The notes under the pieces are model-generated. The model searched no databases and had not been told where the DNA came from. It saw only the letters and a list, made by a program, of their open reading frames with translations. This document shows, one piece after another, positions 1-61,892 of a stretch of DNA of 64,000 bases. Both the position numbers and the translations under genes were made by a program. This stretch comes from Escherichia coli. Its GTDB lineage: Bacteria; Pseudomonadota; Gammaproteobacteria; Enterobacterales; Enterobacteriaceae. The stretch lies in NCBI RefSeq assembly GCF_003790525.1, contig NZ_CP033635.1; one strand, 5' to 3'. Positions within the stretch are counted from its first letter, which is position 1. Each line of letters begins with the position of its first letter.

Positions 1-2403
1 CACGTCTGCCAGGGTGATTTGCTGCTTCATCGGCGTGAGGATCGGCAACTGGCGCAGTGCCTGCGGGCTATCGCGCCAGCTTTGCGGATAACGCAGATTA
101 ATTGGATAACGAGCAATCCCTTCCACCGTTTCGCCAACCATCGCCCCGCCCACCGCAGATGTCACAAACAATTGCACATCCGCCACCGTCATACCGTAAC
201 GCGCGGCTTTTTCACGGTTAATCTCAACGTTGATATAGCGCCCACCTTCCAGCCGCTCGGCAAGAGCAGAAGCTACGCCTGGCACCGTTCGCGCCACTTC
301 TTCAATTTGCTCCGCCATCGTGTCGATATCCGCCAGCACAGTGCCGGAAACTTTAATGCCGATAGGGCTTTTAATGCCAGTCGAGAGCATATCGATACGG
401 TTACGAATTGGCGGCACCCACAGATTCGCCAGCCCCGGCAGACGCACGGTGTTATCCAGTTCCTCAATGATTTTGTCCATCGTCATGCCTGGCCGCCACT
501 GATCTTGTGGCTTAAGCTGGATAGTCGTTTCTACCATCTCCAGTGGAGCTGAATCGGTGGCGGTTTCCGCTTTCCCGGTTTTGCCAAATACCCGCGCCAC
601 TTCCGGTACGCTCATAATCAGCTTGTCGGTTTTTTGCAGCATGCTCGCCGCCTCTGCTGCGGAAATCCCCGGCAGCGTCGATGGCATATACAACAAGTCG
701 CCTTCATTGATCTGCGGTAAAAATTCCCCGCCAACTTTATTGAGCGGCCAGAGTACCGTCAGCACCGAAAGCGCTGCCACCAACAGCGTGGTTTTCGGCC
801 AGTGCAGTACTTTCAGCAACAGCGGATGATAAACACGAATCAAAAAGCGATTGAGCGGGTTACTGCTTTCCGGCGGAATTTTGCCACGGATCCAGTAGCC
901 CATCAGGATCGGGATCACTACGATCGCCAGTAGCGCCGCGCCCGCCATCGCATAGGTTTTGGTGAACGCCAGCGGGCCAAACAGACGACCTTCCTGCCCT
1001 TCCAGGGTGAAGATCGGGATAAACGACAGCGTGATAATCAGCAGACTGATAAACAGCGCCGGCCCCACTTCAACAGATGCATCGGTAATCACCTGCCAGC
1101 GCGTTTTATTATCCAGCGTGGCGTCAGGATGCTGGTGCTGCCACTCTTCCAGCCGTTTATGCGCATTCTCGATCATGACGATAGCGGCATCGACCATCGC
1201 CCCGACGGCAATCGCAATACCGCCCAGCGACATAATATTGGCGTTCAGTCCCTGAAAGTGCATGACAATAAAAGCAATACACAACCCCAGCGGCAACGAA
1301 ATAATCGCCACCAGCGCCGAGCGCACATGCCAGAGAAACAGCGCACAGACTACCGCCACCACAATAAACTCTTCCAGCAACTTGCCACTGAGGTTGTCAA
1401 TGGCGCGGTCAATGAGCTGGCTGCGATCGTATGTTGTAACTATCTCCACGCCTTCCGGCAGACTGCTTTTCAGCGTTTCCAGTTTGTCCTTCACGGCAGC
1501 GATCACTTCACGGGCGTTTTTGCCGGAACGCAGGATCACCACCCCGCCCGCCACTTCGCCTTCGCCGTTCAGTTCGGCAATGCCCCGGCGCATCTCCGGG
1601 CCAACCTGGACCTTCGCAACATCACGCAGATAAACGGGCACGCCATTTTCACTGGCTTTTAAAACGATGTGATTAAAGTCGTCGAGCGTTTGCAGATATC
1701 CGCTGGCGCGCACCATATATTCCGCTTCCGCCAGTTCGATCGACGAACCGCCCGCTTCCTGGTTTGAAGCATCCAGCGCGCTTTTTACTTCGGCGAGACT
1801 GATGCCATACTGCGCCAGGCGCTGAGGATCGATAACCACCTGATACTCTTTCACCACACCGCCCACCGACGCCACTTCCGCAACGTCAGGGATGGTTTTT
1901 AGCTCATATTTGAGAAACCAGTCCTGCAATGAGCGTAAATCGGCCAGATCGTGCTTACCGCTGCGATCTACCAGTGCATATTCATAGATCCAGCCAACGC
2001 CCGTGGCGTCTGGCCCCAGCTCGGCGCTGACTCCCGCAGGCAGCTTCCCCTGTACCTGATTGAGGTACTCCAGCACCCGCGAGCGCGCCCAGTACGGATC
2101 GGTGCCATCTTCAAAAATGACATACACATAAGAGTCGCCAAACTGCGAGAAACCGCGCACTGTCTTCGCGCCAGGTACCGACAACATGGTGGTGGTTAGC
2201 GGATAAGTCACCTGATTTTCAACGATTTGCGGTGCCTGACCGGGATAGCTGGTTTTAATAATCACCTGTACATCAGAGAGATCCGGCAGCGCATCCACTG
2301 GCGTGTTAATGATGGTCCAGGTGCCCCAGATGCTCAGAAACAACGCGCCCATCAGCACCAGAAAACGGTTCGCCACCGAGCGACGAATAATCCATTCAAT
2401 CAT
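1..2403 (-). CDS. cusA: CusA, RND inner-membrane copper/silver efflux pump (partial; C-terminal part lies beyond the window start)
   Basis: Reverse complement at 2380-2403 encodes MIEWIIRR, the CusA N-terminus; minus-strand frame stays open to position 1; sits downstream of cusB. The long plus-strand ORFs here are antisense shadows. Confidence 0.9.
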
Positions 2404-2414
2404 TGGTTATTCCC

Positions 2415-3638
2415 TCAATGCGCATGGGTAGCACTTTCAGAGCGCATCCGCTCCAGTGCGCCAGAAATATTGGCTTCAGAATCAATCAGGAACAGGCCGC
2501 TGGAAACCACCTTTTCACCTTCCGCCAGACCAGAGCGTAACGCGGTGACGCCTTGCGATGCCTGGAAAACGGCAACGCGTTTCGGTACAAAGCGCCCGTC
2601 AGCATCAACGGTAATCACCCGCTGTTCGTTGCCGGTATCAATCAGCGCCTGTGACGGAATGAGCAGCATCGGTTCGCTGGCGGTATTGAGTTGCAACCAG
2701 GCGTTCATGCCCGGTTTTAGCGCCTCGTCGGCGTTGTCGACTTCCAGACGCAGTTGTAGCGTGCGGGTCGCGGCATCCACGCCGGGTAGCAGGGTCCATT
2801 TGCGAATGGTGAGTGTTTTATCCGGTCGCGCCGGAACGGTGAGGGTAAACTGCGAGGCATCTTTCACCAGCCAGGCGATGGACTCCGGGATCGCAGCAGT
2901 GACCCACACCGGGTCCATACCCTGAATTTTCGCGACCACGTTATCTTTGGCGATATTCATTCCCGCGCGCAGATCAAACGCGGTGATCACGCCATCAATG
3001 GGCGCTTTGAGCGTAAAGCGAGTCTGGATTTTTTGCGTGGCGATCAGGCGGCGAATATCCGCCTCCGGCATTCCCGCCAGTCTCAGCCGCTCAAGAATGC
3101 CTTCAGTCTGGGTCGCCGTACCGCCGGTTTCGCGCAGCAGTAAATACTCACTCTGCGCTTCCACCCAGTCGGGAATGGTCAGGTCGAGAAGCGGTGTGCC
3201 CTTTTGTACTTTATCGCCCACGGTAAGCGGATACACCTTGTCGATAAACCCGGCAGCGCGAGCCTGCACAATGGCATACTGATACTCGTTGTAACTGACA
3301 TTCGCCGGGAAACTCTGGGCAAAAGTCAGCGGCCCGCGCGTGACGGTCGCCGTTTTCACCCCCAGATTCTGCGTCTGGGTCGGGTCAATGCGTACACCAG
3401 ACGCAGAACTCTCTTCATCGGCATATTTCGGCACCAGATCCATATCCATAAACGGCGATTTACCTGGTTTATCGAACCGCGTATTGGGATACATCGGGTC
3501 GTACCAGAATAAGATTTTACGTTCTGCGGTCGGCGTTTTTTCTGCGGGCGGTTCAGCCTTTGCAAACCAGGTAAAACCTGCCGCAGAAATAATACCGCCC
3601 GCGATCATGCTGCCGATAATAAGCGCGATTTTTTTCAT
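2415..3638 (-). CDS. cusB: CusB, periplasmic adaptor of the CusCBA efflux system
   Basis: 407-aa ORF beginning MKKIALIIGSMIAGG with a signal/anchor; position between cusF and cusA. Confidence 0.92.
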   Translation of the reverse strand: MKKIALIIGSMIAGGIISAAGFTWFAKAEPPAEKTPTAERKILFWYDPMYPNTRFDKPGKSPFMDMDLVPKYADEESSASGVRIDPTQTQNLGVKTATVTRGPLTFAQSFPANVSYNEYQYAIVQARAAGFIDKVYPLTVGDKVQKGTPLLDLTIPDWVEAQSEYLLLRETGGTATQTEGILERLRLAGMPEADIRRLIATQKIQTRFTLKAPIDGVITAFDLRAGMNIAKDNVVAKIQGMDPVWVTAAIPESIAWLVKDASQFTLTVPARPDKTLTIRKWTLLPGVDAATRTLQLRLEVDNADEALKPGMNAWLQLNTASEPMLLIPSQALIDTGNEQRVITVDADGRFVPKRVAVFQASQGVTALRSGLAEGEKVVSSGLFLIDSEANISGALERMRSESATHAH

Positions 3639-3653
3639 CTCATTAAACCTGGG

Positions 3654-3986
3654 TTACTGGCTGACTTTAATATCCTGTAATAAAGAAAGGTTGCCCTGCT
3701 GGACAAAATTAAACGCCACTTTGTCGCCGGTTTTAATTTCGCTCATTTTCGTCTGCGGGGTGATGGTAAAGCGCATGGTCATCTCCGGCCAGTTCACGGC
3801 AGCAATCGGATCGTGATGGATGGTGATTTTTTTGCTTTCCAGATCAACACCTTTTACCACGCCAGTGGCGCTAATAACCTGTGGCTGTGCTTCGCTCATG
3901 GATTCATGATGATGTTCGTTAGCCTGGGCATTAAAGCCAATAACGGTAAACAGACTAAACATTGCGACTTGCAGTGCTTTTTTCAT
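3654..3986 (-). CDS. cusF: CusF, periplasmic copper/silver chaperone
   Basis: 110-aa ORF with signal peptide and His-rich motif NEHHHE; position between cusC and cusB. Confidence 0.92.
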   Translation of the reverse strand: MKKALQVAMFSLFTVIGFNAQANEHHHESMSEAQPQVISATGVVKGVDLESKKITIHHDPIAAVNWPEMTMRFTITPQTKMSEIKTGDKVAFNFVQQGNLSLLQDIKVSQ

Positions 3987-4009
3987 TTATTCTCTCCTGG
4001 AGTTAAAAA

Positions 4010-5392
4010 TTATTGCTGCCAACCGCCGCCTAAGGCGGTATATAAAGAAATTTCGTTAACCTGACGGGCATAATTCAGGTCAAGTAAAGTTTGTCGGGTT
4101 GCAAATAAAGAACGCTCGGCATCCAGCACTTCCAGATAACTTACTGCGCCGTGCTGATATAATGCCCGCGCCCGTTGCAAAGTAATTTTCAGCGATGCCA
4201 GATAACGCTGCTGGGCGCTGATTTGATCGTTCAGGCTTTGACGTAATGCCAGCGCATCTGCCACTTCTTTAAAGGCATTCTGGATTTTCTGTTCATAATT
4301 CACCACCGACTGCTGCTGGCGAATTTCGGCGATATCCAGATTGGCCTGGTTGCGTCCGGCATTAAAAATGGGGATCTCAATTTTGGGTATAAAATTCCAC
4401 ATCCCGCTGCTGGCGTTAAATAATGACGACAGATCGCTACTGGCGGTCGATATTCCGCTGGTCAGGCTGATAGACGGGAAAAATGCCGCGCGTGCAGCGC
4501 CAATATTGGCATTAGCCGCCATTAACGCGTGTTCAGCTTCCATAATATCAGGGCGCTGCAATAAGATTTGCGACGGCAAGCCCGCCGGTAATTTAACGCT
4601 TTGCAGGCTGTCGCTGTTTACTGTCTGCGCTTGCGGCAGCTTGCCGTAGCTTCCCAATAACAGTTGCAATGCATTATTCGCCTGCGCCAGTTCCCCCTGA
4701 CGTTTAGCGATGTCGCTGCGGGTACTTTCTATCACCCCGCGAGCCTGTTCTAGCGCCAGAACATTGCTGCTACCGGTCAACAGTTGTTTTTCGACAAATG
4801 CATATGACTGCTGATAATTACGCAGCGTTTCTTCGGCTATTTGCAATTGCGCATACGCCAGTTGCTGATTGAAATAGCTTTGCGCGACATTAGAAACCAG
4901 CAGAATATGCACCGCGCGCTGAGCTTCCTCAGTAGCTAAATAATTTTGACGCTCGGCTTCGCTCATGTTCTTTAAGCGCCCGAAAAAATCGAGGTCAAAG
5001 CTGGCGTTAAGGCCGGTCGAAAACTCCCGTGTCGTGGCGGTATTCCCTTTAAGATTACCGCTCCAGCTGCCGCTGCCCTCGCCATTGAGCTGTGGGTAGC
5101 GGTCGGCATCGGTCAGACGATATTGCGCCCGTGCCTCCTGCACTTTCAGCGCCGCCATGCGCAAATCCCGGTTATTCACCAACGCCTCGCTAATCAGCGT
5201 CTTCACCTGATTATCAACAAAAAAGGTGCGCCAGCCCGCGTTCTGGTAGTTATCTGCTGCGTTAACCAGGCCGTTCTGGCTGAGTGAGAACTGCTGCGGC
5301 ACGGGCATTGCCGGACGCTGATAATCCGGTGCCAGTGAACAACCGGTTAGCGCAAGGGCCACACAAAATGGCAGAAGTTTACAAGGAGACAT
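4010..5392 (-). CDS. cusC: CusC, outer-membrane efflux channel lipoprotein
   Basis: About 460-aa ORF, N-terminus MSPCKLLPFCVALALTGCSLAP with a lipobox; first gene of the cusCFBA operon. Confidence 0.92.
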   Translation of the reverse strand: MSPCKLLPFCVALALTGCSLAPDYQRPAMPVPQQFSLSQNGLVNAADNYQNAGWRTFFVDNQVKTLISEALVNNRDLRMAALKVQEARAQYRLTDADRYPQLNGEGSGSWSGNLKGNTATTREFSTGLNASFDLDFFGRLKNMSEAERQNYLATEEAQRAVHILLVSNVAQSYFNQQLAYAQLQIAEETLRNYQQSYAFVEKQLLTGSSNVLALEQARGVIESTRSDIAKRQGELAQANNALQLLLGSYGKLPQAQTVNSDSLQSVKLPAGLPSQILLQRPDIMEAEHALMAANANIGAARAAFFPSISLTSGISTASSDLSSLFNASSGMWNFIPKIEIPIFNAGRNQANLDIAEIRQQQSVVNYEQKIQNAFKEVADALALRQSLNDQISAQQRYLASLKITLQRARALYQHGAVSYLEVLDAERSLFATRQTLLDLNYARQVNEISLYTALGGGWQQ

Positions 5393-5462
5393 AGGCTCAT
5401 AATTTCTGGTGATTTTATGCCGCCAACTTTACTCGCCAGGCTCTGATTTTCCGGTGACAGGA

Positions 5463-5484
5463 AAATGACAAAATTGTCATTTTG
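5463..5484. promoter_or_regulatory. CusR (copper) box in the divergent cusC / cusRS promoter region
   Basis: Perfect palindrome AAAATGACAAAATTGTCATTTT in the 156-bp cusC-cusR intergenic region; matches the known CusR operator architecture. Confidence 0.75.
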
Positions 5485-5548
5485 CCAATAAGCGATTGCC
5501 ATCTGATCCCGCTACTCTAGAATTGCCCGGGCAACATGCGGAGGAAAT

Positions 5549-6232
5549 ATGAAACTGTTGATTGTCGAAGATGAAAAGAAAACCGGAGAATACTTGACCA
5601 AAGGGTTAACCGAAGCCGGTTTTGTGGTCGATTTGGCCGACAACGGGCTGAATGGCTACCATCTGGCGATGACCGGTGATTATGATCTGATAATCCTCGA
5701 TATTATGCTGCCGGACGTGAACGGCTGGGATATCGTGCGCATGTTGCGTTCCGCCAATAAGGGGATGCCGATTCTGTTGCTTACCGCGCTTGGCACCATT
5801 GAACATCGCGTCAAGGGGCTGGAGTTGGGGGCGGATGACTATCTGGTTAAGCCGTTCGCTTTTGCTGAACTGCTGGCGCGGGTGCGCACTCTACTGCGGC
5901 GCGGGGCGGCGGTGATTATCGAAAGTCAGTTTCAGGTTGCCGATCTGATGGTCGATCTCGTCAGCCGCAAAGTCACCCGTAGCGGCACGCGCATCACGTT
6001 GACCAGTAAAGAATTTACTTTGCTGGAGTTTTTCCTCCGCCATCAGGGTGAAGTGCTGCCCCGCTCGCTTATCGCCTCGCAGGTGTGGGACATGAATTTC
6101 GACAGCGACACTAACGCCATTGATGTGGCGGTGAAGCGGCTACGCGGCAAAATCGACAACGACTTTGAGCCGAAGCTGATTCAGACCGTGCGCGGCGTGG
6201 GCTATATGCTTGAGGTGCCGGATGGTCAGTAA
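5549..6232 (+). CDS. cusR: CusR, OmpR-family response regulator
   Basis: 227-aa [19 protein letters not shown] with receiver and winged-helix layout; GGAGGA Shine-Dalgarno 5 nt upstream of the ATG. Confidence 0.93.
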
Positions 6233-7664
6233 GCCATTTCAGCGCCCGTTTTCGCTGGCAACCCGTCTGACCTTTTTTATCAGCCTGGCCACCATCGCGG
6301 CGTTTTTCGCCTTTGCATGGATCATGATCCACTCGGTAAAAGTGCATTTTGCCGAGCAGGATATTAATGATTTAAAAGAGATTAGCGCCACCCTTGAACG
6401 GGTACTTAATCACCCTGACGAAACGCAAGCCCGACGCTTAATGACGCTGGAAGATATCGTCAGTGGTTATTCCAACGTGTTGATTTCTCTGGTAGATAGC
6501 CACGGTAAAACGGTGTATCACTCCCCCGGTGCGCCGGATATCCGCGAGTTTGCACGTGATGCCATACCCGATAAAGACGCTCGGGGCGGCGAGGTGTATC
6601 TCCTTTCCGGCCCGACAATGATGATGCCAGGCCACGGTCACGGACATATGGAACACAGCAACTGGCGGATGATTAACTTGCCGGTTGGCCCGCTGGTGGA
6701 CGGCAAACCGATTTATACGCTCTACATCGCGCTGTCTATCGATTTTCATCTTCATTACATTAATGATTTGATGAATAAACTTATTATGACCGCATCGGTA
6801 ATCAGCATTCTGATCGTCTTTATCGTGCTGTTGGCGGTACATAAAGGTCACGCGCCGATCCGCAGCGTCAGCCGTCAAATCCAGAACATTACCTCGAAAG
6901 ATCTCGACGTTCGCCTCGATCCACAGACCGTGCCCATTGAACTCGAACAACTGGTGCTGTCGTTCAACCATATGATCGAGCGTATTGAGGATGTCTTTAC
7001 CCGCCAGTCCAATTTCTCAGCGGATATCGCCCACGAAATTCGTACACCAATTACGAATCTCATAACGCAAACGGAAATCGCCCTCAGCCAGTCGCGCAGC
7101 CAGAAGGAGCTGGAAGATGTGCTCTACTCTAATCTCGAAGAGCTGACGCGAATGGCGAAAATGGTCAGCGATATGTTGTTTCTCGCCCAGGCCGATAACA
7201 ACCAGTTAATCCCCGAAAAGAAAATGCTCAACCTGGCGGATGAAGTCGGCAAAGTGTTCGATTTTTTCGAGGCGTTAGCGGAAGATCGCGGCGTGGAGTT
7301 GCGGTTTGTTGGTGACGAGTGTCAGGTTGCGGGCGATCCGCTGATGTTGCGTCGGGCGTTAAGCAACCTACTTTCTAATGCCCTGCGTTATACGCCAACC
7401 GGAGAGACAATTGTCGTGCGCTGCCAGACGGTCGATCACCTGGTGCAAGTTACCGTCGAAAACCCTGGTACGCCCATTGCGCCTGAGCACTTACCGCGAT
7501 TGTTTGACCGTTTCTACCGCATTGATCCTTCCCGCCAGCGAAAAGGCGAAGGTAGCGGTATTGGCCTGGCGATAGTGAAATCGATTGTTGTCGCGCATAA
7601 AGGCACGGTTGCGGTAACGTCAGATGCGCGGGGAACAAGGTTTGTTATCATATTACCCGCTTAA
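6222..7664 (+). CDS. cusS: CusS, copper-sensing histidine kinase
   Basis: ORF contains [19 protein letters not shown] with two TM segments and an HK core (HEIRTPIT); start chosen at the ATG at 6222, overlapping the cusR 3' end by 11 bp. Confidence 0.88.
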
Positions 7665-14890: not shown

Positions 14891-14967
14891 TGGCGCGCCC
14901 TGCAGGATTCGAACCTGCGGCCCACGACTTAGAAGGTCGTTGCTCTATCCAACTGAGCTAAGGGCGC
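14891..14967 (-). tRNA. argU: tRNA-Arg, anticodon UCU (argU)
   Basis: Reverse complement reads GCGCCCTTAGCTCAGTTGGATAGAGCAACGACCTTCTAAGTCGTGGGCCGCAGGTTCGAATCCTGCAGGGCGCGCCA: cloverleaf with anticodon loop CUUCUAA and 3' CCA. Confidence 0.93.
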
Positions 14968-23664: not shown

Positions 23665-23699
23665 CCGGATGCGAAAACTCGCATCCGGCAATAGCGCAA

Positions 23700-35686: not shown

Positions 35687-36472
35687 ATGGGATATTTAAA
35701 TAACGTCACCGGTTACCGCGATGATTTACTGGCTAACCGTGCGATTGTGAAACACGGTAATTTCGCGCTGTTAACCCCGGACGGCCTGGTAAAAAATATT
35801 ATTCCGGGCTTTGAAAATTGTGACGCGACAATCCTCTCCACGCCAAAACTGGGTGCCTCTTTTGTTGATTATCTGGTCACACTGCATCAAAACGGCGGCA
35901 ACCAACAGGGCTTCGGTGGCGAAGGCATTGAAACGTTCCTGTATGTGATCTCTGGAAATATCACTGCCAAAGCCGAAGGTAAAACATTTGCCTTAAGCGA
36001 AGGTGGCTATCTTTATTGCCCGCCAGGCTCCTTAATGACGTTTGTTAACGTCCAGGCCGAAGACAGCCAAATCTTTTTATATAAGCGTCGCTATATTCCG
36101 GTAGAAGGTCATGCGCCGTGGCTGGTTTCTGGCAATGCCAGCGAACTGGAACGCATTCATTATGAAGGCATGGACGATGTTATTCTGCTGGATTTTCTGC
36201 CCAAAGAGTTAGGTTTTGATATGAACATGCATATCCTCTCTTTTGCACCAGGTGCCAGCCACGGTTATATCGAAACCCACGTTCAGGAACACGGTGCCTA
36301 TATTCTTTCCGGTCAGGGGGTTTATAACCTCGACAATAACTGGATCCCGGTGAAAAAAGGCGATTACATCTTTATGGGCGCTTATTCTTTACAGGCTGGT
36401 TATGGCGTAGGGCGTGGTGAAGCGTTCAGCTATATTTACTCGAAAGATTGCAACCGCGACGTAGAGATTTAA
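35687..36472 (+). CDS. allE: AllE (YlbA), (S)-ureidoglycine aminohydrolase, bicupin
   Basis: 261-aa ORF MGYLNNVTGYRDDLLANRAIVKHG. Confidence 0.88.
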   Translation: MGYLNNVTGYRDDLLANRAIVKHGNFALLTPDGLVKNIIPGFENCDATILSTPKLGASFVDYLVTLHQNGGNQQGFGGEGIETFLYVISGNITAKAEGKTFALSEGGYLYCPPGSLMTFVNVQAEDSQIFLYKRRYIPVEGHAPWLVSGNASELERIHYEGMDDVILLDFLPKELGFDMNMHILSFAPGASHGYIETHVQEHGAYILSGQGVYNLDNNWIPVKKGDYIFMGAYSLQAGYGVGRGEAFSYIYSKDCNRDVEI

Positions 36473-36556: not shown

Positions 36557-36590
36557 AAAAAACGGATGCGATATAAATCGCATCCGCTTT
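36557..36590 (-). terminator. Rho-independent terminator after glxK
   Basis: CGGATGCGATATAAATCGCATCCG stem-loop followed on the minus strand by a T-run (plus-strand AAAAAA at 36557-36562). Confidence 0.7.
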
Positions 36591-38019: not shown

Positions 38020-38523
38020 TTACTGATAGTGTTTTATGTTCAGATAATGCCCGATGACCTTGTCATGCAGCTCCACCGATTTTGAGAACGACAGTGACTT
38101 CCGTCCCAGCCTTGCCAGATGTTGTCTCAGATTCAGGTTATGCCGCTCAATTCGCTGAGTGTAACGCTTGCTGATTACGTGCAGCTTTCCCTTCAGGCGG
38201 GATTCATACAGCGGCCAGCCATCCGTCATCCATACCACGACCTCAAAGGCCGACAGCAGGCTTAGAAGACGCTCCAGTGTGGCCAGAGTGCGTTCACCGA
38301 ATACGTGCGCAACAACCGTCTTCCGGAGCCTGTCATACGCGTAAAACAGCCAGCGCTGGCGCGATTTAGCCCCGACGTATCCCCACTGTTCGTCCATTTC
38401 CGCGCAGACGATGACGTCACTGCCCGGCTGTATGCGCGAGGTTACCGACTGCGGCCTGAGTTTTTTAAATGGCGGAAAATCGTGTTGAGGCCAACGCCCA
38501 TAATGCGGGCGGTTGCCCGGCAT
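38020..38523 (-). CDS. insB: InsB, IS1 transposase catalytic ORF (expressed by -1 frameshift as InsAB')
   Basis: 167-aa [54 protein letters not shown]. Confidence 0.95.
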
Positions 38524-38717
38524 CCAACGCCATTCATGGCCATATCAATGATTTTCTGGTGCGTACCGGGTTGAGAAGCGGTGTAAGTGAACTGCAGTTG
38601 CCATGTTTTACGGCAGTGAGAGCAGAGATAGCGCTGATGTCCGGCGGTGCTTTTGCCGTTACGCACCACCCCGTCAGTAGCTGAACAGGAGGGACAGCTG
38701 ATAGAAACAGAAGCCAC
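38442..38717 (-). CDS. insA: InsA, IS1 repressor/transposase N-terminal protein
   Basis: 91-aa [43 protein letters not shown] (zinc-finger plus HTH). Confidence 0.95.
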
Positions 38718-59060: not shown

Positions 59061-59423
59061 TTACTCTTCCCGGCCTTTACCCATACTTTTTTGGTCTTCA
59101 TCCGGATAGTGTTTTTTTAGATATTCCAGGACGTTTTTATTGACCTTGTGTTGGGTATACACCCACCCTTTCCAGTAATCAGGTTGGTCCAGGTAAACTT
59201 CTGGCGGAATGGTGAAATCAGAAAGCGTTAACCATTCGGCTAACAGATCGGGGTTTCGTTTCTGGATCAACTGCAACAGCATGATCAGCGACATGGCAGA
59301 GGCAGGAGCCGTACTATCGCCGCTTAAATACTTCCACACTGTCGACCGGTTCGAACGAAAAAGGATCGGTAGCAATGCCCGGTCCAGATTCATTTCATTA
59401 AAAATCTTCTCAAATTCATTCAT
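59061..59423 (-). CDS. Hypothetical 120-aa cytoplasmic protein, possible small DNA-binding regulator
   Basis: ORF with AGGAAA Shine-Dalgarno 6 nt upstream of the ATG; no signal peptide; segment RSNRSTVWKYLSG resembles the recognition helix of small phage-type HTH proteins; transcribed divergently from the adjacent 338-aa gene. I do not recognise the protein. Confidence 0.5.
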   Translation of the reverse strand: MNEFEKIFNEMNLDRALLPILFRSNRSTVWKYLSGDSTAPASAMSLIMLLQLIQKRNPDLLAEWLTLSDFTIPPEVYLDQPDYWKGWVYTQHKVNKNVLEYLKKHYPDEDQKSMGKGREE

Positions 59424-59788
59424 TTAAATTTCCTGCCTGGCGTAAACCTCTTAAAAATTGAGATTTATCAAAGAAACGCATTTTAGCACACATCAGGAAC
59501 CGCTTCACGTTTAGTCCAGAAACAGAATTTATTTCGCTTATCAAAACAAGTCTTTACTCTTTTTTACATTGAAAGAGCACGAAATAATTTCCTTTTTTAT
59601 TTATATAAGAAACTATTTTTGTTCCTTATTGGTGGTGTTTACGCTTACACAAGACAAAAATGCGCTTTACATCACACAAATGGCGGCGTAGATTTCGATC
59701 AAATTGCAACGCAGTTTATTTCTTAAAACAATATTATTTGTTTCTTATAGAAACATTAATGCGACTTATTTTGAACAAGAGAAAATGA

Positions 59789-60805
59789 ATGAAAACTGTA
59801 AACGTAGCTTTACTGGCACTCATAATTTCAGCAATATCCAGCCCTGTTGTTTTAGCTGGTGATACCATTGAAGCGGCGGCAACAGAGCTTTCAGCCATTA
59901 ACTCTGGCATGTCGCAATCGGAGATTGAGCAGAAGATTACCCGCTTTTTAGAACGCACAGACAACAGCCCCGCTGCGTATACCTATTTGACTGAACATCA
60001 CTACATCCCTTCTGAAACACCTGATACCACTCAGACTCCCACTGTCCAGACAGATCCTGACGCAGGACAAAAAACCGTTGCCGCTACAGGTGATGTACAG
60101 ACAACCGCCCGTTATCAGAGCATGATCAACGCCCGACAGTCTGCGGTAACTGATGCCCAGCAAACGCAAATTACAGAGCAACAGGCGCAGATCGTAGCCA
60201 CACAAAAAACGCTCGCCGCGACTGGAGATACGCAAAATACCGCGCATTATCAGGAGATGATTAATGCCAGACTGGCGGCTCAAAATGAGGCTAATCAGCG
60301 CACTACCACGGAACAAGGGCAGAAAATGAATGCACTGACAACCGATGTGGCAGCACAACAGCAAAAAGAAAGGGCTCAATACGATAAACAAATGCAAAGT
60401 CTGGCGCAGAAGTCTGTCCAGGCACATGAGCAAATTGAAAGTCTGAGACAAGATTCCGCACAAACGCAGCAACAGTTAACCAACACGCAAAAACGGGTCG
60501 CAGATAACAGCCAACAAATTAACACGCTCAATAACCATTTCGATTCTCTGAAAAACGAAGTTGAGGACAATCGTAAAGAAGCCAATGCGGGAACTGCATC
60601 TGCCATTGCTATCGCCTCACAACCACAGGTGAAAACCGGTGACGTGATGATGGTGTCAGCGGGAGCGGGAACGTTCAACGGTGAATCTGCGGTGTCTGTA
60701 GGAACATCTTTTAATGCCGGAACGCATACGGTACTTAAAGCAGGTATTTCTGCGGATACACAATCTGATTTCGGTGCGGGTGTCGGCGTGGGATATTCGT
60801 TCTAA
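59789..60805 (+). CDS. Small trimeric-autotransporter-like protein: signal peptide, Gln-rich coiled-coil stalk with two internal repeats, YadA-like C-terminal membrane anchor
   Basis: 338-aa ORF: N-terminal MKTVNVALLALIISAISSPVVLA-GD signal peptide; repeats QKTVAATGDVQTTARYQSMINAR and QKTLAATGDTQNTAHYQEMINAR; heptad-like stalk; C-terminus ANAGTASAIAIASQPQ...GAGVGVGYSF matches the four-strand YadA anchor pattern ending in an aromatic residue. Confidence 0.75.
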   Translation: MKTVNVALLALIISAISSPVVLAGDTIEAAATELSAINSGMSQSEIEQKITRFLERTDNSPAAYTYLTEHHYIPSETPDTTQTPTVQTDPDAGQKTVAATGDVQTTARYQSMINARQSAVTDAQQTQITEQQAQIVATQKTLAATGDTQNTAHYQEMINARLAAQNEANQRTTTEQGQKMNALTTDVAAQQQKERAQYDKQMQSLAQKSVQAHEQIESLRQDSAQTQQQLTNTQKRVADNSQQINTLNNHFDSLKNEVEDNRKEANAGTASAIAIASQPQVKTGDVMMVSAGAGTFNGESAVSVGTSFNAGTHTVLKAGISADTQSDFGAGVGVGYSF

Positions 60806-60858
60806 TTTTAACAGCAATTTCTTATTCGCAATTTTCCGCACATTATTTAAGGTTAACA

Positions 60859-61281
60859 ATGATGAATAGCTCCATTAAATCGTTTTCCCTGCTGGCGGTT
60901 ATATTACTGGCTGGCTGTAGTTCACCCACTTCCCGCATCGCAGATTGCCAGGCGCAGGGCGTCAGCCATGACACCTGTTATCTCGCAGAACAGCAGCGTC
61001 AGACGGCTATTTTAAGTGCATCCGAGGCGCAGGCATTTAAAAATGCAGAAGCCGCACAACATGCCCAGGCGGCAAAGAAAGCCATTTATAAAGGATTTGG
61101 CATGACCTTTAGAATGAGCAGTAAGAACTTTGCTTATCTCAATGATTCATTATGTGCAATTGATGAAGACAATAAAGATGCCACTGTTTATCAGTCAGGT
61201 CTTTATAACGTCATTGTTTATCACCACACGGGAAAAGTCGCCTTAATGAAGGAAGGTCAGTTTGTGGGTTATTTAAAATGA
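60859..61281 (+). CDS. Hypothetical lipoprotein (140 aa)
   Basis: Signal peptide with lipobox LLAG-C (Cys20), three further Cys; AAGG ribosome-binding site upstream; 53 bp downstream of the autotransporter-like gene. Confidence 0.6.
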   Translation: MMNSSIKSFSLLAVILLAGCSSPTSRIADCQAQGVSHDTCYLAEQQRQTAILSASEAQAFKNAEAAQHAQAAKKAIYKGFGMTFRMSSKNFAYLNDSLCAIDEDNKDATVYQSGLYNVIVYHHTGKVALMKEGQFVGYLK

Positions 61282-61481
61282 AGGAGCAAAGGAAAATCCC
61301 CCTGACGCATATTATGATTATCGGTGCGTTTATTTTTGCCTTCTTGCAAGTGGTGTTATTAGCCTCCCTGGTTCACGCTGTGAATGTTAACAACGAAATC
61401 CAGGAAGGCTTATTTCAGTCGGGGCGCATTATGGTAGAAAGTTTGCAGCATATTCTTTCGGTGCAAACGGGGATTAACTGA
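61278..61481 (+). CDS. Hypothetical small single-pass membrane protein (67 aa)
   Basis: ATG overlaps the lipoprotein stop (ATGA), with AAGGAG inside the upstream gene; one hydrophobic helix IMIIGAFIFAFLQVVLLASLV. Confidence 0.45.
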   Translation: MKEQRKIPLTHIMIIGAFIFAFLQVVLLASLVHAVNVNNEIQEGLFQSGRIMVESLQHILSVQTGIN

Positions 61482-61484
61482 TTT

Positions 61485-61892
61485 TCACCCCGCCCGATGA
61501 TGACAGCAGCCGGAGAGATTTTCGATAATCGGGCAGTCGGCGCTGTCATCACCGGGGCAGGCATTCGCCAGCGCCAGTAGCTGGTTGCGCATGGATTGCA
61601 GTTCTTCGATATGCCGTTCGATCTCCGCTACCTTCTCCAACGTACGACGTTTGACGTCGGCACTGTGACGCTGCGGATCGTTAAACAGATTCACCAGCTC
61701 GCCGCTCTCTTCCAGGTTAAAGCCCACCTGGCGTGCCTGCCGCAGTAAGGTCAGTTCGTTGAGATGCTGCTGCGTGTAGGTTCGATAACCATTTTCGCTG
61801 CGCATCGGCGGCGTCACCAGCCCCTTCTCTTCATAGAAGCGGATTGCTTTGCTGGTCAGGCCGGTAATTTTTGCTACATCGCTAATGTTCAT
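61485..61892 (-). CDS. cueR: CueR, MerR-family copper-responsive regulator
   Basis: 135-aa [28 protein letters not shown] with C-terminal metal-binding Cys pair ([10 protein letters not shown]). Confidence 0.92.

Follow-up and report, generated by a model that had tools for sequence, protein, structure and literature searches.

The divergent cusC-cusR control region of Escherichia coli SMS-3-5: an unchanged CusR box and a candidate third half-site

The 156-bp spacer between cusC and cusR in the stretch of DNA that we analyzed (64,000 nucleotides, hereafter the window) is, with a probability of roughly 0.9, the chromosomal cus control region, where CusS and CusR would drive divergent activation from a palindromic box, with three half-sites on the cusC side. 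Most of this arrangement is already known: the control region here is the established E. coli switch, and its box is unchanged. The third half-site, a TGACA next to the palindrome on the cusC side, is not mentioned in the accessible published descriptions of the CusR box, and a full-text literature search with the half-box string returned unrelated papers only.

In the proposed mechanism, periplasmic Cu(I) or Ag(I) would activate the kinase CusS, which would phosphorylate CusR at D51. A CusR dimer would then occupy the palindrome at 5462-5483 and activate the two divergent promoters. The cusCFBA promoter, apparently lacking a -35 element, would be strongly dependent on the activator, and the near-consensus cusRS promoter would show a modest autoinduction of about 5-fold. 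The paralogue HprR presumably uses the box too. Read towards cusC, the putative operator unit would consist of TGACA, 4 nt, TGTCA, 6 nt, and TGTCA. Its last two half-sites would form an 11-bp direct repeat, typical of OmpR/PhoB regulators, that ends 22 bp before TAAAGT. With neither the box nor CusR altered, the mechanism known in K-12 is expected to carry over to this strain; binding and activation by CusR at this box in SMS-3-5 are presumed from the K-12 work.

The cus locus and its palindrome

The window corresponds to positions 539601-603600 of NC_010498.1 (E. coli SMS-3-5), reverse-complemented. Over the 64 kb compared there is a sole mismatch, at 35755, and the initial 25 kb are 100% identical. 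The RefSeq annotation of NC_010498.1 names the cus genes cusS, cusR, cusC, cusF, cusB, and cusA, and the matches of all six products far exceed the curated NCBIfam cut-offs (Table 1). CusR scores 507.9 bits with NF007346, for which the equivalog cut-off is 420, and residues 1-227 are covered; CusS matches NF007345 over its full length with 983 bits, where the cut-off is 423.

The open reading frames and the RefSeq annotation agree on a minus-strand cusC and a plus-strand cusR separated by 156 bp, as the initial annotation had described. The 11-bp overlap of cusR and cusS that it reported is likewise present, since the cusS ATG (MVSKPFQRP) lies at 6222 and the cusR stop ends at 6232; the shared 11 nt are ATGGTCAGTAA. 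The pump operon had also been called fully intact. This description applies to cusC, cusF, and cusB, which are complete in the window and above their cut-offs. The cusA gene is cut by the start edge of the window (801 of 1047 codons) and is intact, at 1047 aa, only in the source genome NC_010498.1. The window itself therefore does not display an intact cusCFBA, and the normal copper/silver resistance predicted from it is a presumption.

Table 1. Features of the cus region and of cueR in the window
Feature	Position	Strand	Details
cusA, 5' part	1..2403	-	801/1047 codons, no stop; TIGR00914 CusA/CzcA 1271 bits, profile positions 1-809 of 1051
cusB, periplasmic adaptor of pump	2415..3638	-	407 aa; 3 substitutions vs K-12; NF007303 861.8 bits
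cusF, periplasmic Cu/Ag chaperone	3654..3986	-	110 aa; 2 substitutions vs K-12; NF007348 205 bits
cusC, outer-membrane channel	4010..5392	-	460 aa, MSPCKLLP...; NF007347 904 bits
Divergent cusC/cusR control region	5393..5548	.	156 bp, between the cusC and cusR ORFs
Predicted cusC -10 hexamer TAAAGT	5426..5431	-	silC has TAAAGT at equal distance; TAnnnT at that distance in 11 target-side promoters
Candidate third half-site TGACA	5455..5459	.	Direct repeat with 5466-5470 at 11-bp spacing; cusC side only
CusR box AAAATGACAA-AA-TTGTCATTTT	5462..5483	.	Arms 5462-5471 and 5474-5483; exact match to published consensus (PMC11195947)
Predicted sigma-70 promoter of cusRS	5496..5523	+	TTGCCA 5496-5501, 16 nt, TAGAAT 5518-5523; 10/12 consensus matches
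cusR, OmpR/PhoB-family response regulator	5549..6232	+	227 aa; NF007346 equivalog
cusS, Cu/Ag sensor histidine kinase	6222..7664	+	NF007345 983 bits
cueR	61485..61892	-	About 56 kb from box

The CusR protein shows no differences from that of K-12 and contains the receiver residue D51. CusS has eight substitutions relative to K-12 and retains the phospho-accepting H271. CusC of K-12 differs from that of the window at three residues, and the C-terminus of the window protein is three residues longer. K-12 carries an ERIC-type insert of ~134 bp between cusC and cusF (positions 6930-7140 of locus L002) that the window lacks (3987-4020), such that the cusC-cusF gap is 23 bp in the window and 157 bp in K-12. 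We take both ERIC primer sequences to be present in this insert. A TGG-to-TGA change that arrives with the insert shortens K-12 CusC to 457 aa, compared with 460 aa in the window.

An inverted-repeat finder resolves the box into two arms of 10 nt, 100% complementary, with 2 nt between them. The palindrome was initially called perfect, which is true of the arms; the central AA is not self-complementary, and the symmetry is confined to the arms. The inner half-sites are TGACA (5466-5470) and TGTCA (5475-5479). The initial placement of the box as centered between the two genes is accurate to 2 bp, with the box centered at 5472.5 and the spacer at 5470.5; 69 bp separate the box from cusC, and 65 bp separate it from cusR.

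The box was also said to be single, and searches of the whole window bear this out. The sequence AAAATGACAANNTTGTCATTTT has one match in the 64 kb, even when three mismatches are allowed, and none in 100 dinucleotide-preserving shuffles. Its 14-base core, with two mismatches allowed, also matches only at the box. Thus, neither search reveals a second CusR box in the window.

One might take the palindrome for an inverted repeat of chance or structural origin (REP-like, a cruciform, or an RNA hairpin) with no regulatory role. The window does hold two more perfect inverted repeats with 10-nt arms, for a total of three (arms of at least 10 nt, spacer of at most 4 nt) where shuffled sequences have a mean of 0.36. 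However, these two repeats, at 23665-23688 and 36563-36586, are G+C-rich and REP-like (CCGGATGCG...CGCATCCGG), unlike the box. The empty shuffles, the position of the box upstream of both genes, its retention across genera beside cusR orthologues, and direct binding in K-12 by gSELEX and ChIP-chip all stand against such a reading, which is effectively refuted. An Rfam scan of 5000-6000 matched no family, and a reading of the region as an RNA element was dropped on that basis.

The initial annotation considered the cus system relevant because cueR lies in the same window, near a novel insert. The box and cueR are ~56 kb apart, and CueR and CusR, both copper-responsive, act at different promoters. 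A functional link drawn from co-occurrence in the window was therefore rejected, and cueR has no bearing on the box. The "novel insert" appears to be 59061-61481, between cueR and ybbJ, for which the source annotation lists a YadA-family autotransporter adhesin and three hypothetical proteins, two before the adhesin and one after it. According to the same annotation, an IS1 copy at 38020-38717 disrupts a gene for a uracil/xanthine transporter in the allantoin region, and envY comes directly after a tRNA-Arg gene in the region of 14891-14967. In K-12, the DLP12 prophage presumably sits at this tRNA-Arg. Its absence here would explain why cueR and cusR fall within one 64-kb window.

Promoters, regulators, and conservation of the spacer

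The E. coli CusR site has been given as AAAATGACAAnnTTGTCATTTT, between cusRS and cusC(F)BA (PMC11195947), and is credited to Yamamoto & Ishihama 2005 in two later papers that cite it (PMC11195947, PMC10920338). For purified CusR and also for its paralogue HprR, the main gSELEX peak is in this spacer, which is the only site bound by unphosphorylated CusR (PMC8249747). ChIP-chip likewise yielded one CusR peak, located in this spacer (bioRxiv 10.1101/2020.08.17.251918). The roles of CusS H271 and CusR D51 have been described (PMC12589874).

According to the initial annotation, phosphorylated CusR drives both promoters from one box. Activation of both PcusC and PcusR by phospho-CusR is well supported in the K-12 literature (PMC10920338, PMC11522558, PMC9725139, PMC12589874), with reporter fusions among the evidence (PMC11522558, PMC9725139), and the autoregulated cusR promoter has been described with a single binding site and about 5-fold induction (PMC9725139). 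The phrase "one box" is less apt, in that it omits the third half-site and the sharing of the site with HprR.

The box could instead serve in vivo mainly for HprR (YedW), or as a repressor site for unphosphorylated CusR, and not as a copper-dependent activator site. The strongest gSELEX peak of HprR is indeed this spacer. Unphosphorylated CusR binds only here, and the authors suggested that it keeps cusCFBA repressed without inducer (PMC8249747). Moreover, 5414 of the 5426 E. coli genomes contain the hprR-hiuH spacer. Nevertheless, copper induction of PcusC requires CusRS (PMC8966772, PMC12132413, PMC9302797), and the box has the position of an activator, upstream of each of the two predicted core promoters. 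Cross-regulation adds to activation by CusR and does not replace it, and would be an extra layer at most. Either version of this proposal is thus improbable.

On the cusR side, a near-consensus sigma-70 promoter is predicted, and its TAGAAT hexamer also precedes silR and Providencia cusR. From this prediction, cusR transcription would start near 5530, and the box would be centered near -57.5. A consensus scan of the cusC strand of the spacer found no sigma-70-like promoter, a result that fits activator dependence and is no positive proof of it. If TAAAGT is the cusC -10 element, the predicted start is near 5419, the box center would be near -53.5, and the third half-site would fall near -40 to -36.

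Of 5426 complete E. coli genomes, 5333 carry the spacer, in every case with at least 95% identity. About one-tenth of an evenly spread set of E. coli matches equal the window spacer exactly, and most are one base off. K-12 is identical at 155 of 156 nt; the only difference is at 5461, which is G here and A in K-12. This position is directly outside the box, between it and the third half-site, and G is also found in sil and in Shimwellia. Among the E. coli spacers that diverge most, a small sample from the bottom of the identity ranking, substitutions occur at 5397, 5420, 5433, 5440, 5461, 5484, and 5539, with none within 5462-5483.

Conservation of the box extends beyond E. coli. The core AATGACAA..TTGTCATTT does not vary in an alignment that covers E. 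coli cus, the sil locus of a Klebsiella plasmid, Schmidhempelia, and three Providencia-like loci, whose spacers together average only 47% column identity. A box adjacent to a cusR orthologue is also present in Providencia, in Schmidhempelia, and in the E. coli representative genome.

One E. coli strain has a disrupted spacer. In O19:H7 730V1 (locus L129, 1880-3110), IS903B is inserted at the equivalent of window positions 5440-5448 with a 9-bp target duplication, GCTCTGATT, such that the cusC core promoter is cut off from the box and the third half-site. The same strain also has ISKpn26 inside cusC.

A third half-site on the cusC side

Read towards cusC, the order of elements in the spacer is TGACAA-TT-TTGTCA-T-TTTC-C-TGTCA-C, then 22 bp, then TAAAGT. 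The TGACA at 5455-5459 forms an invariant alignment block with varying columns on its flanks. A layout with the half-site, 22 bp, and TAnnnT occurs in 11 target-side promoters, namely those of cusC in SMS-3-5, cusC in K-12, silC, silE, K-12 hiuH, three Providencia-like cusC genes, one in Shimwellia, and both sides in Schmidhempelia. At hiuH of K-12, the third half-site takes that promoter's own variant, TGTAA. The third half-site is at 5295-5299 of locus L006, at about 4888-4892 of locus L005, and on both sides in locus L073.

The layout does not occur on the regulator side in E. coli (cusR), sil (silR), or Providencia (cusR), nor at pcoA. A rule by which the cusR side would share the 22-bp geometry fails in these same places. 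The extra half-site is symmetrical in Schmidhempelia, where it is found on both sides of the palindrome, such that a fourth half-site is present.

As a control, we considered at least 120 loci in species-representative genomes that carry the 18-base palindrome core, with six cus loci among the matches listed. In these matches, the third half-site occurs at the exact offset in all six loci adjacent to a CusR orthologue and in none of the 114 others with the same core, even with one mismatch allowed; the 114 are mostly one homologous Collinsella site and hence are not independent. That site, seen among the matches listed in dozens of Collinsella species (mostly loci L007-L126), is a 24-bp perfect palindrome, CGAAATGACAACGTTGTCATTTCG, that includes the CusR-box core. 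No CusR-like regulator lies within 3 kb of the Collinsella palindromes, and they are presumably operators of an unrelated regulator.

The locus of Shimwellia pseudoproteus (L062, 5400-5574) is arranged differently. Its box lies downstream of cusS, with cusRS co-oriented with the target, and serves a single promoter, that of a small His/Met-rich protein with a signal peptide (MKITQLILTLALATPLASFAQEMAAHDHQ...). The third half-site is on the side of that single promoter.

OmpR/PhoB-family regulators whose structures have been solved with DNA bind direct repeats head-to-tail. Among the solved structures listed for the nearest relatives of CusR, none is of CusR with DNA. In the cus spacer, the extra half-site lies one helical turn from the palindrome and is promoter-proximal, which is the operator arrangement of AgrR, a regulator for which the inverted and direct repeats both contribute. 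This precedent and the conserved layout lead us to propose that the cusC-side operator is a unit of three half-sites, made up of the palindrome and a promoter-proximal direct repeat at 11 bp, located 22 bp from the -10 element. The same rule would hold at silC, silE, and hiuH, and the unequal induction of the two promoters in E. coli would follow from the cusR side having no fourth half-site. We consider the odds on this full proposal to be about even. The weaker autoinduction of cusRS in E. coli does fit a cusR side with only two half-sites of its own.

The palindrome alone could instead be the complete CusR operator, with TGACA at 5455-5459 conserved for another reason, such as a role in the cusC core promoter or shared descent. 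Published descriptions name just the palindrome, which is the only CusR site cited (PMC11195947, PMC9302797), and the report of one binding site at the cusR promoter agrees with them (PMC9725139). The cusC promoters of cus, sil, and Providencia are homologous, so their likeness could reflect common descent. However, descent is a less ready explanation for silE and hiuH, which are not obviously homologous to cusC and yet carry the third half-site at an equal offset and an equal distance from the -10 element. The invariance of TGACA amid varying columns, the extra half-site on both sides in Schmidhempelia, and the experimental precedent of AgrR also weigh against the palindrome as the whole operator, and this possibility seems rather unlikely. 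The proposed third half-site may be implicit already in the original footprints.

If the third half-site is functional, it would account in simple sequence terms for the unequal output of the two divergent promoters, and it would refine what is meant by "CusR binding site" in copper biosensors based on PcusC and in decoy-site experiments. Were the three-half-site proposal true, one shared site would give strong cusCFBA induction together with modest autoinduction of cusRS. The cus switch on the chromosome of this environmental E. coli strain is the standard one, with regulator and box unchanged. Therefore, its baseline CusRS-dependent response to copper and silver is expected to resemble that of K-12.

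Relation to known systems

The closest known counterpart is the cusR-cusC region of K-12, which shares with the window the length of the spacer, the identical 22-bp box, CusR, the 11-nt cusR/cusS overlap, and the gene order. The plasmid-borne sil system (Klebsiella NZ_CP140259.1) has the same divergent organization of regulator and pump. Its box, ATAATGACAATGTTGTCATTTT, differs by one mismatch, the flanking GGTGACAGG is identical, and its TAAAGT and TAGAAT -10 elements are at equal distances. A second sil box, at silE, displays the three-half-site geometry. The sil system differs in its location on a plasmid, in a DNA identity of only ~73%, in a 189-bp spacer, and in its additional silE, silP, and pco genes.

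Within E. coli, the hprR-hiuH spacer contains an HprR/CusR box, CATTACAAAATTGTAATG (Urano 2015, as cited in PMC9302797), to which both CusR and HprR bind (PMC8249747). Regulator and target are again divergent, the palindrome spacing is equal, and a third half-site lies 11 bp on, on the target side, followed by 22 bp and TAnnnT. The half-sites are TTACA/TGTAA rather than TGACA/TGTCA, and the site is reported to have lower affinity. Searches for the CusR box with up to three mismatches find no match at K-12 hiuH.

A palindrome of Pseudomonas paraeruginosa, ATTCATnnATGTAAT, recognized by CusR, CopR, and CzcR, resembles the E. coli box in being a single palindrome in a divergent spacer, between cusR and pcoA2, that controls both operons and is common to several paralogous regulators (PMC11195947). 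Mutations in this palindrome abolish induction (PMC11195947). It is unlike the E. coli box in its sequence and in its target operon (pcoA2), and CopR acts negatively on one side.

The AgrR box of Cupriavidus metallidurans (PMC7380067) is the nearest parallel to the third half-site. AgrR belongs to the same subfamily of heavy-metal response regulators, and its box combines an inverted repeat with an in-phase direct repeat. Mutations show that both repeats, the inverted one and the promoter-proximal direct one, have a part in binding and are needed for activation, and a type II activator geometry has been proposed for this regulator, along with positive autoregulation (PMC7380067). Its half-site, ATKACA, is different, the unphosphorylated form is active, and AgrR is another protein at another locus, so that its relevance to CusR is by analogy. 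Seen beside AgrR, the third half-site of the cusC promoter is an extension of a known kind of operator, rather than a new kind.
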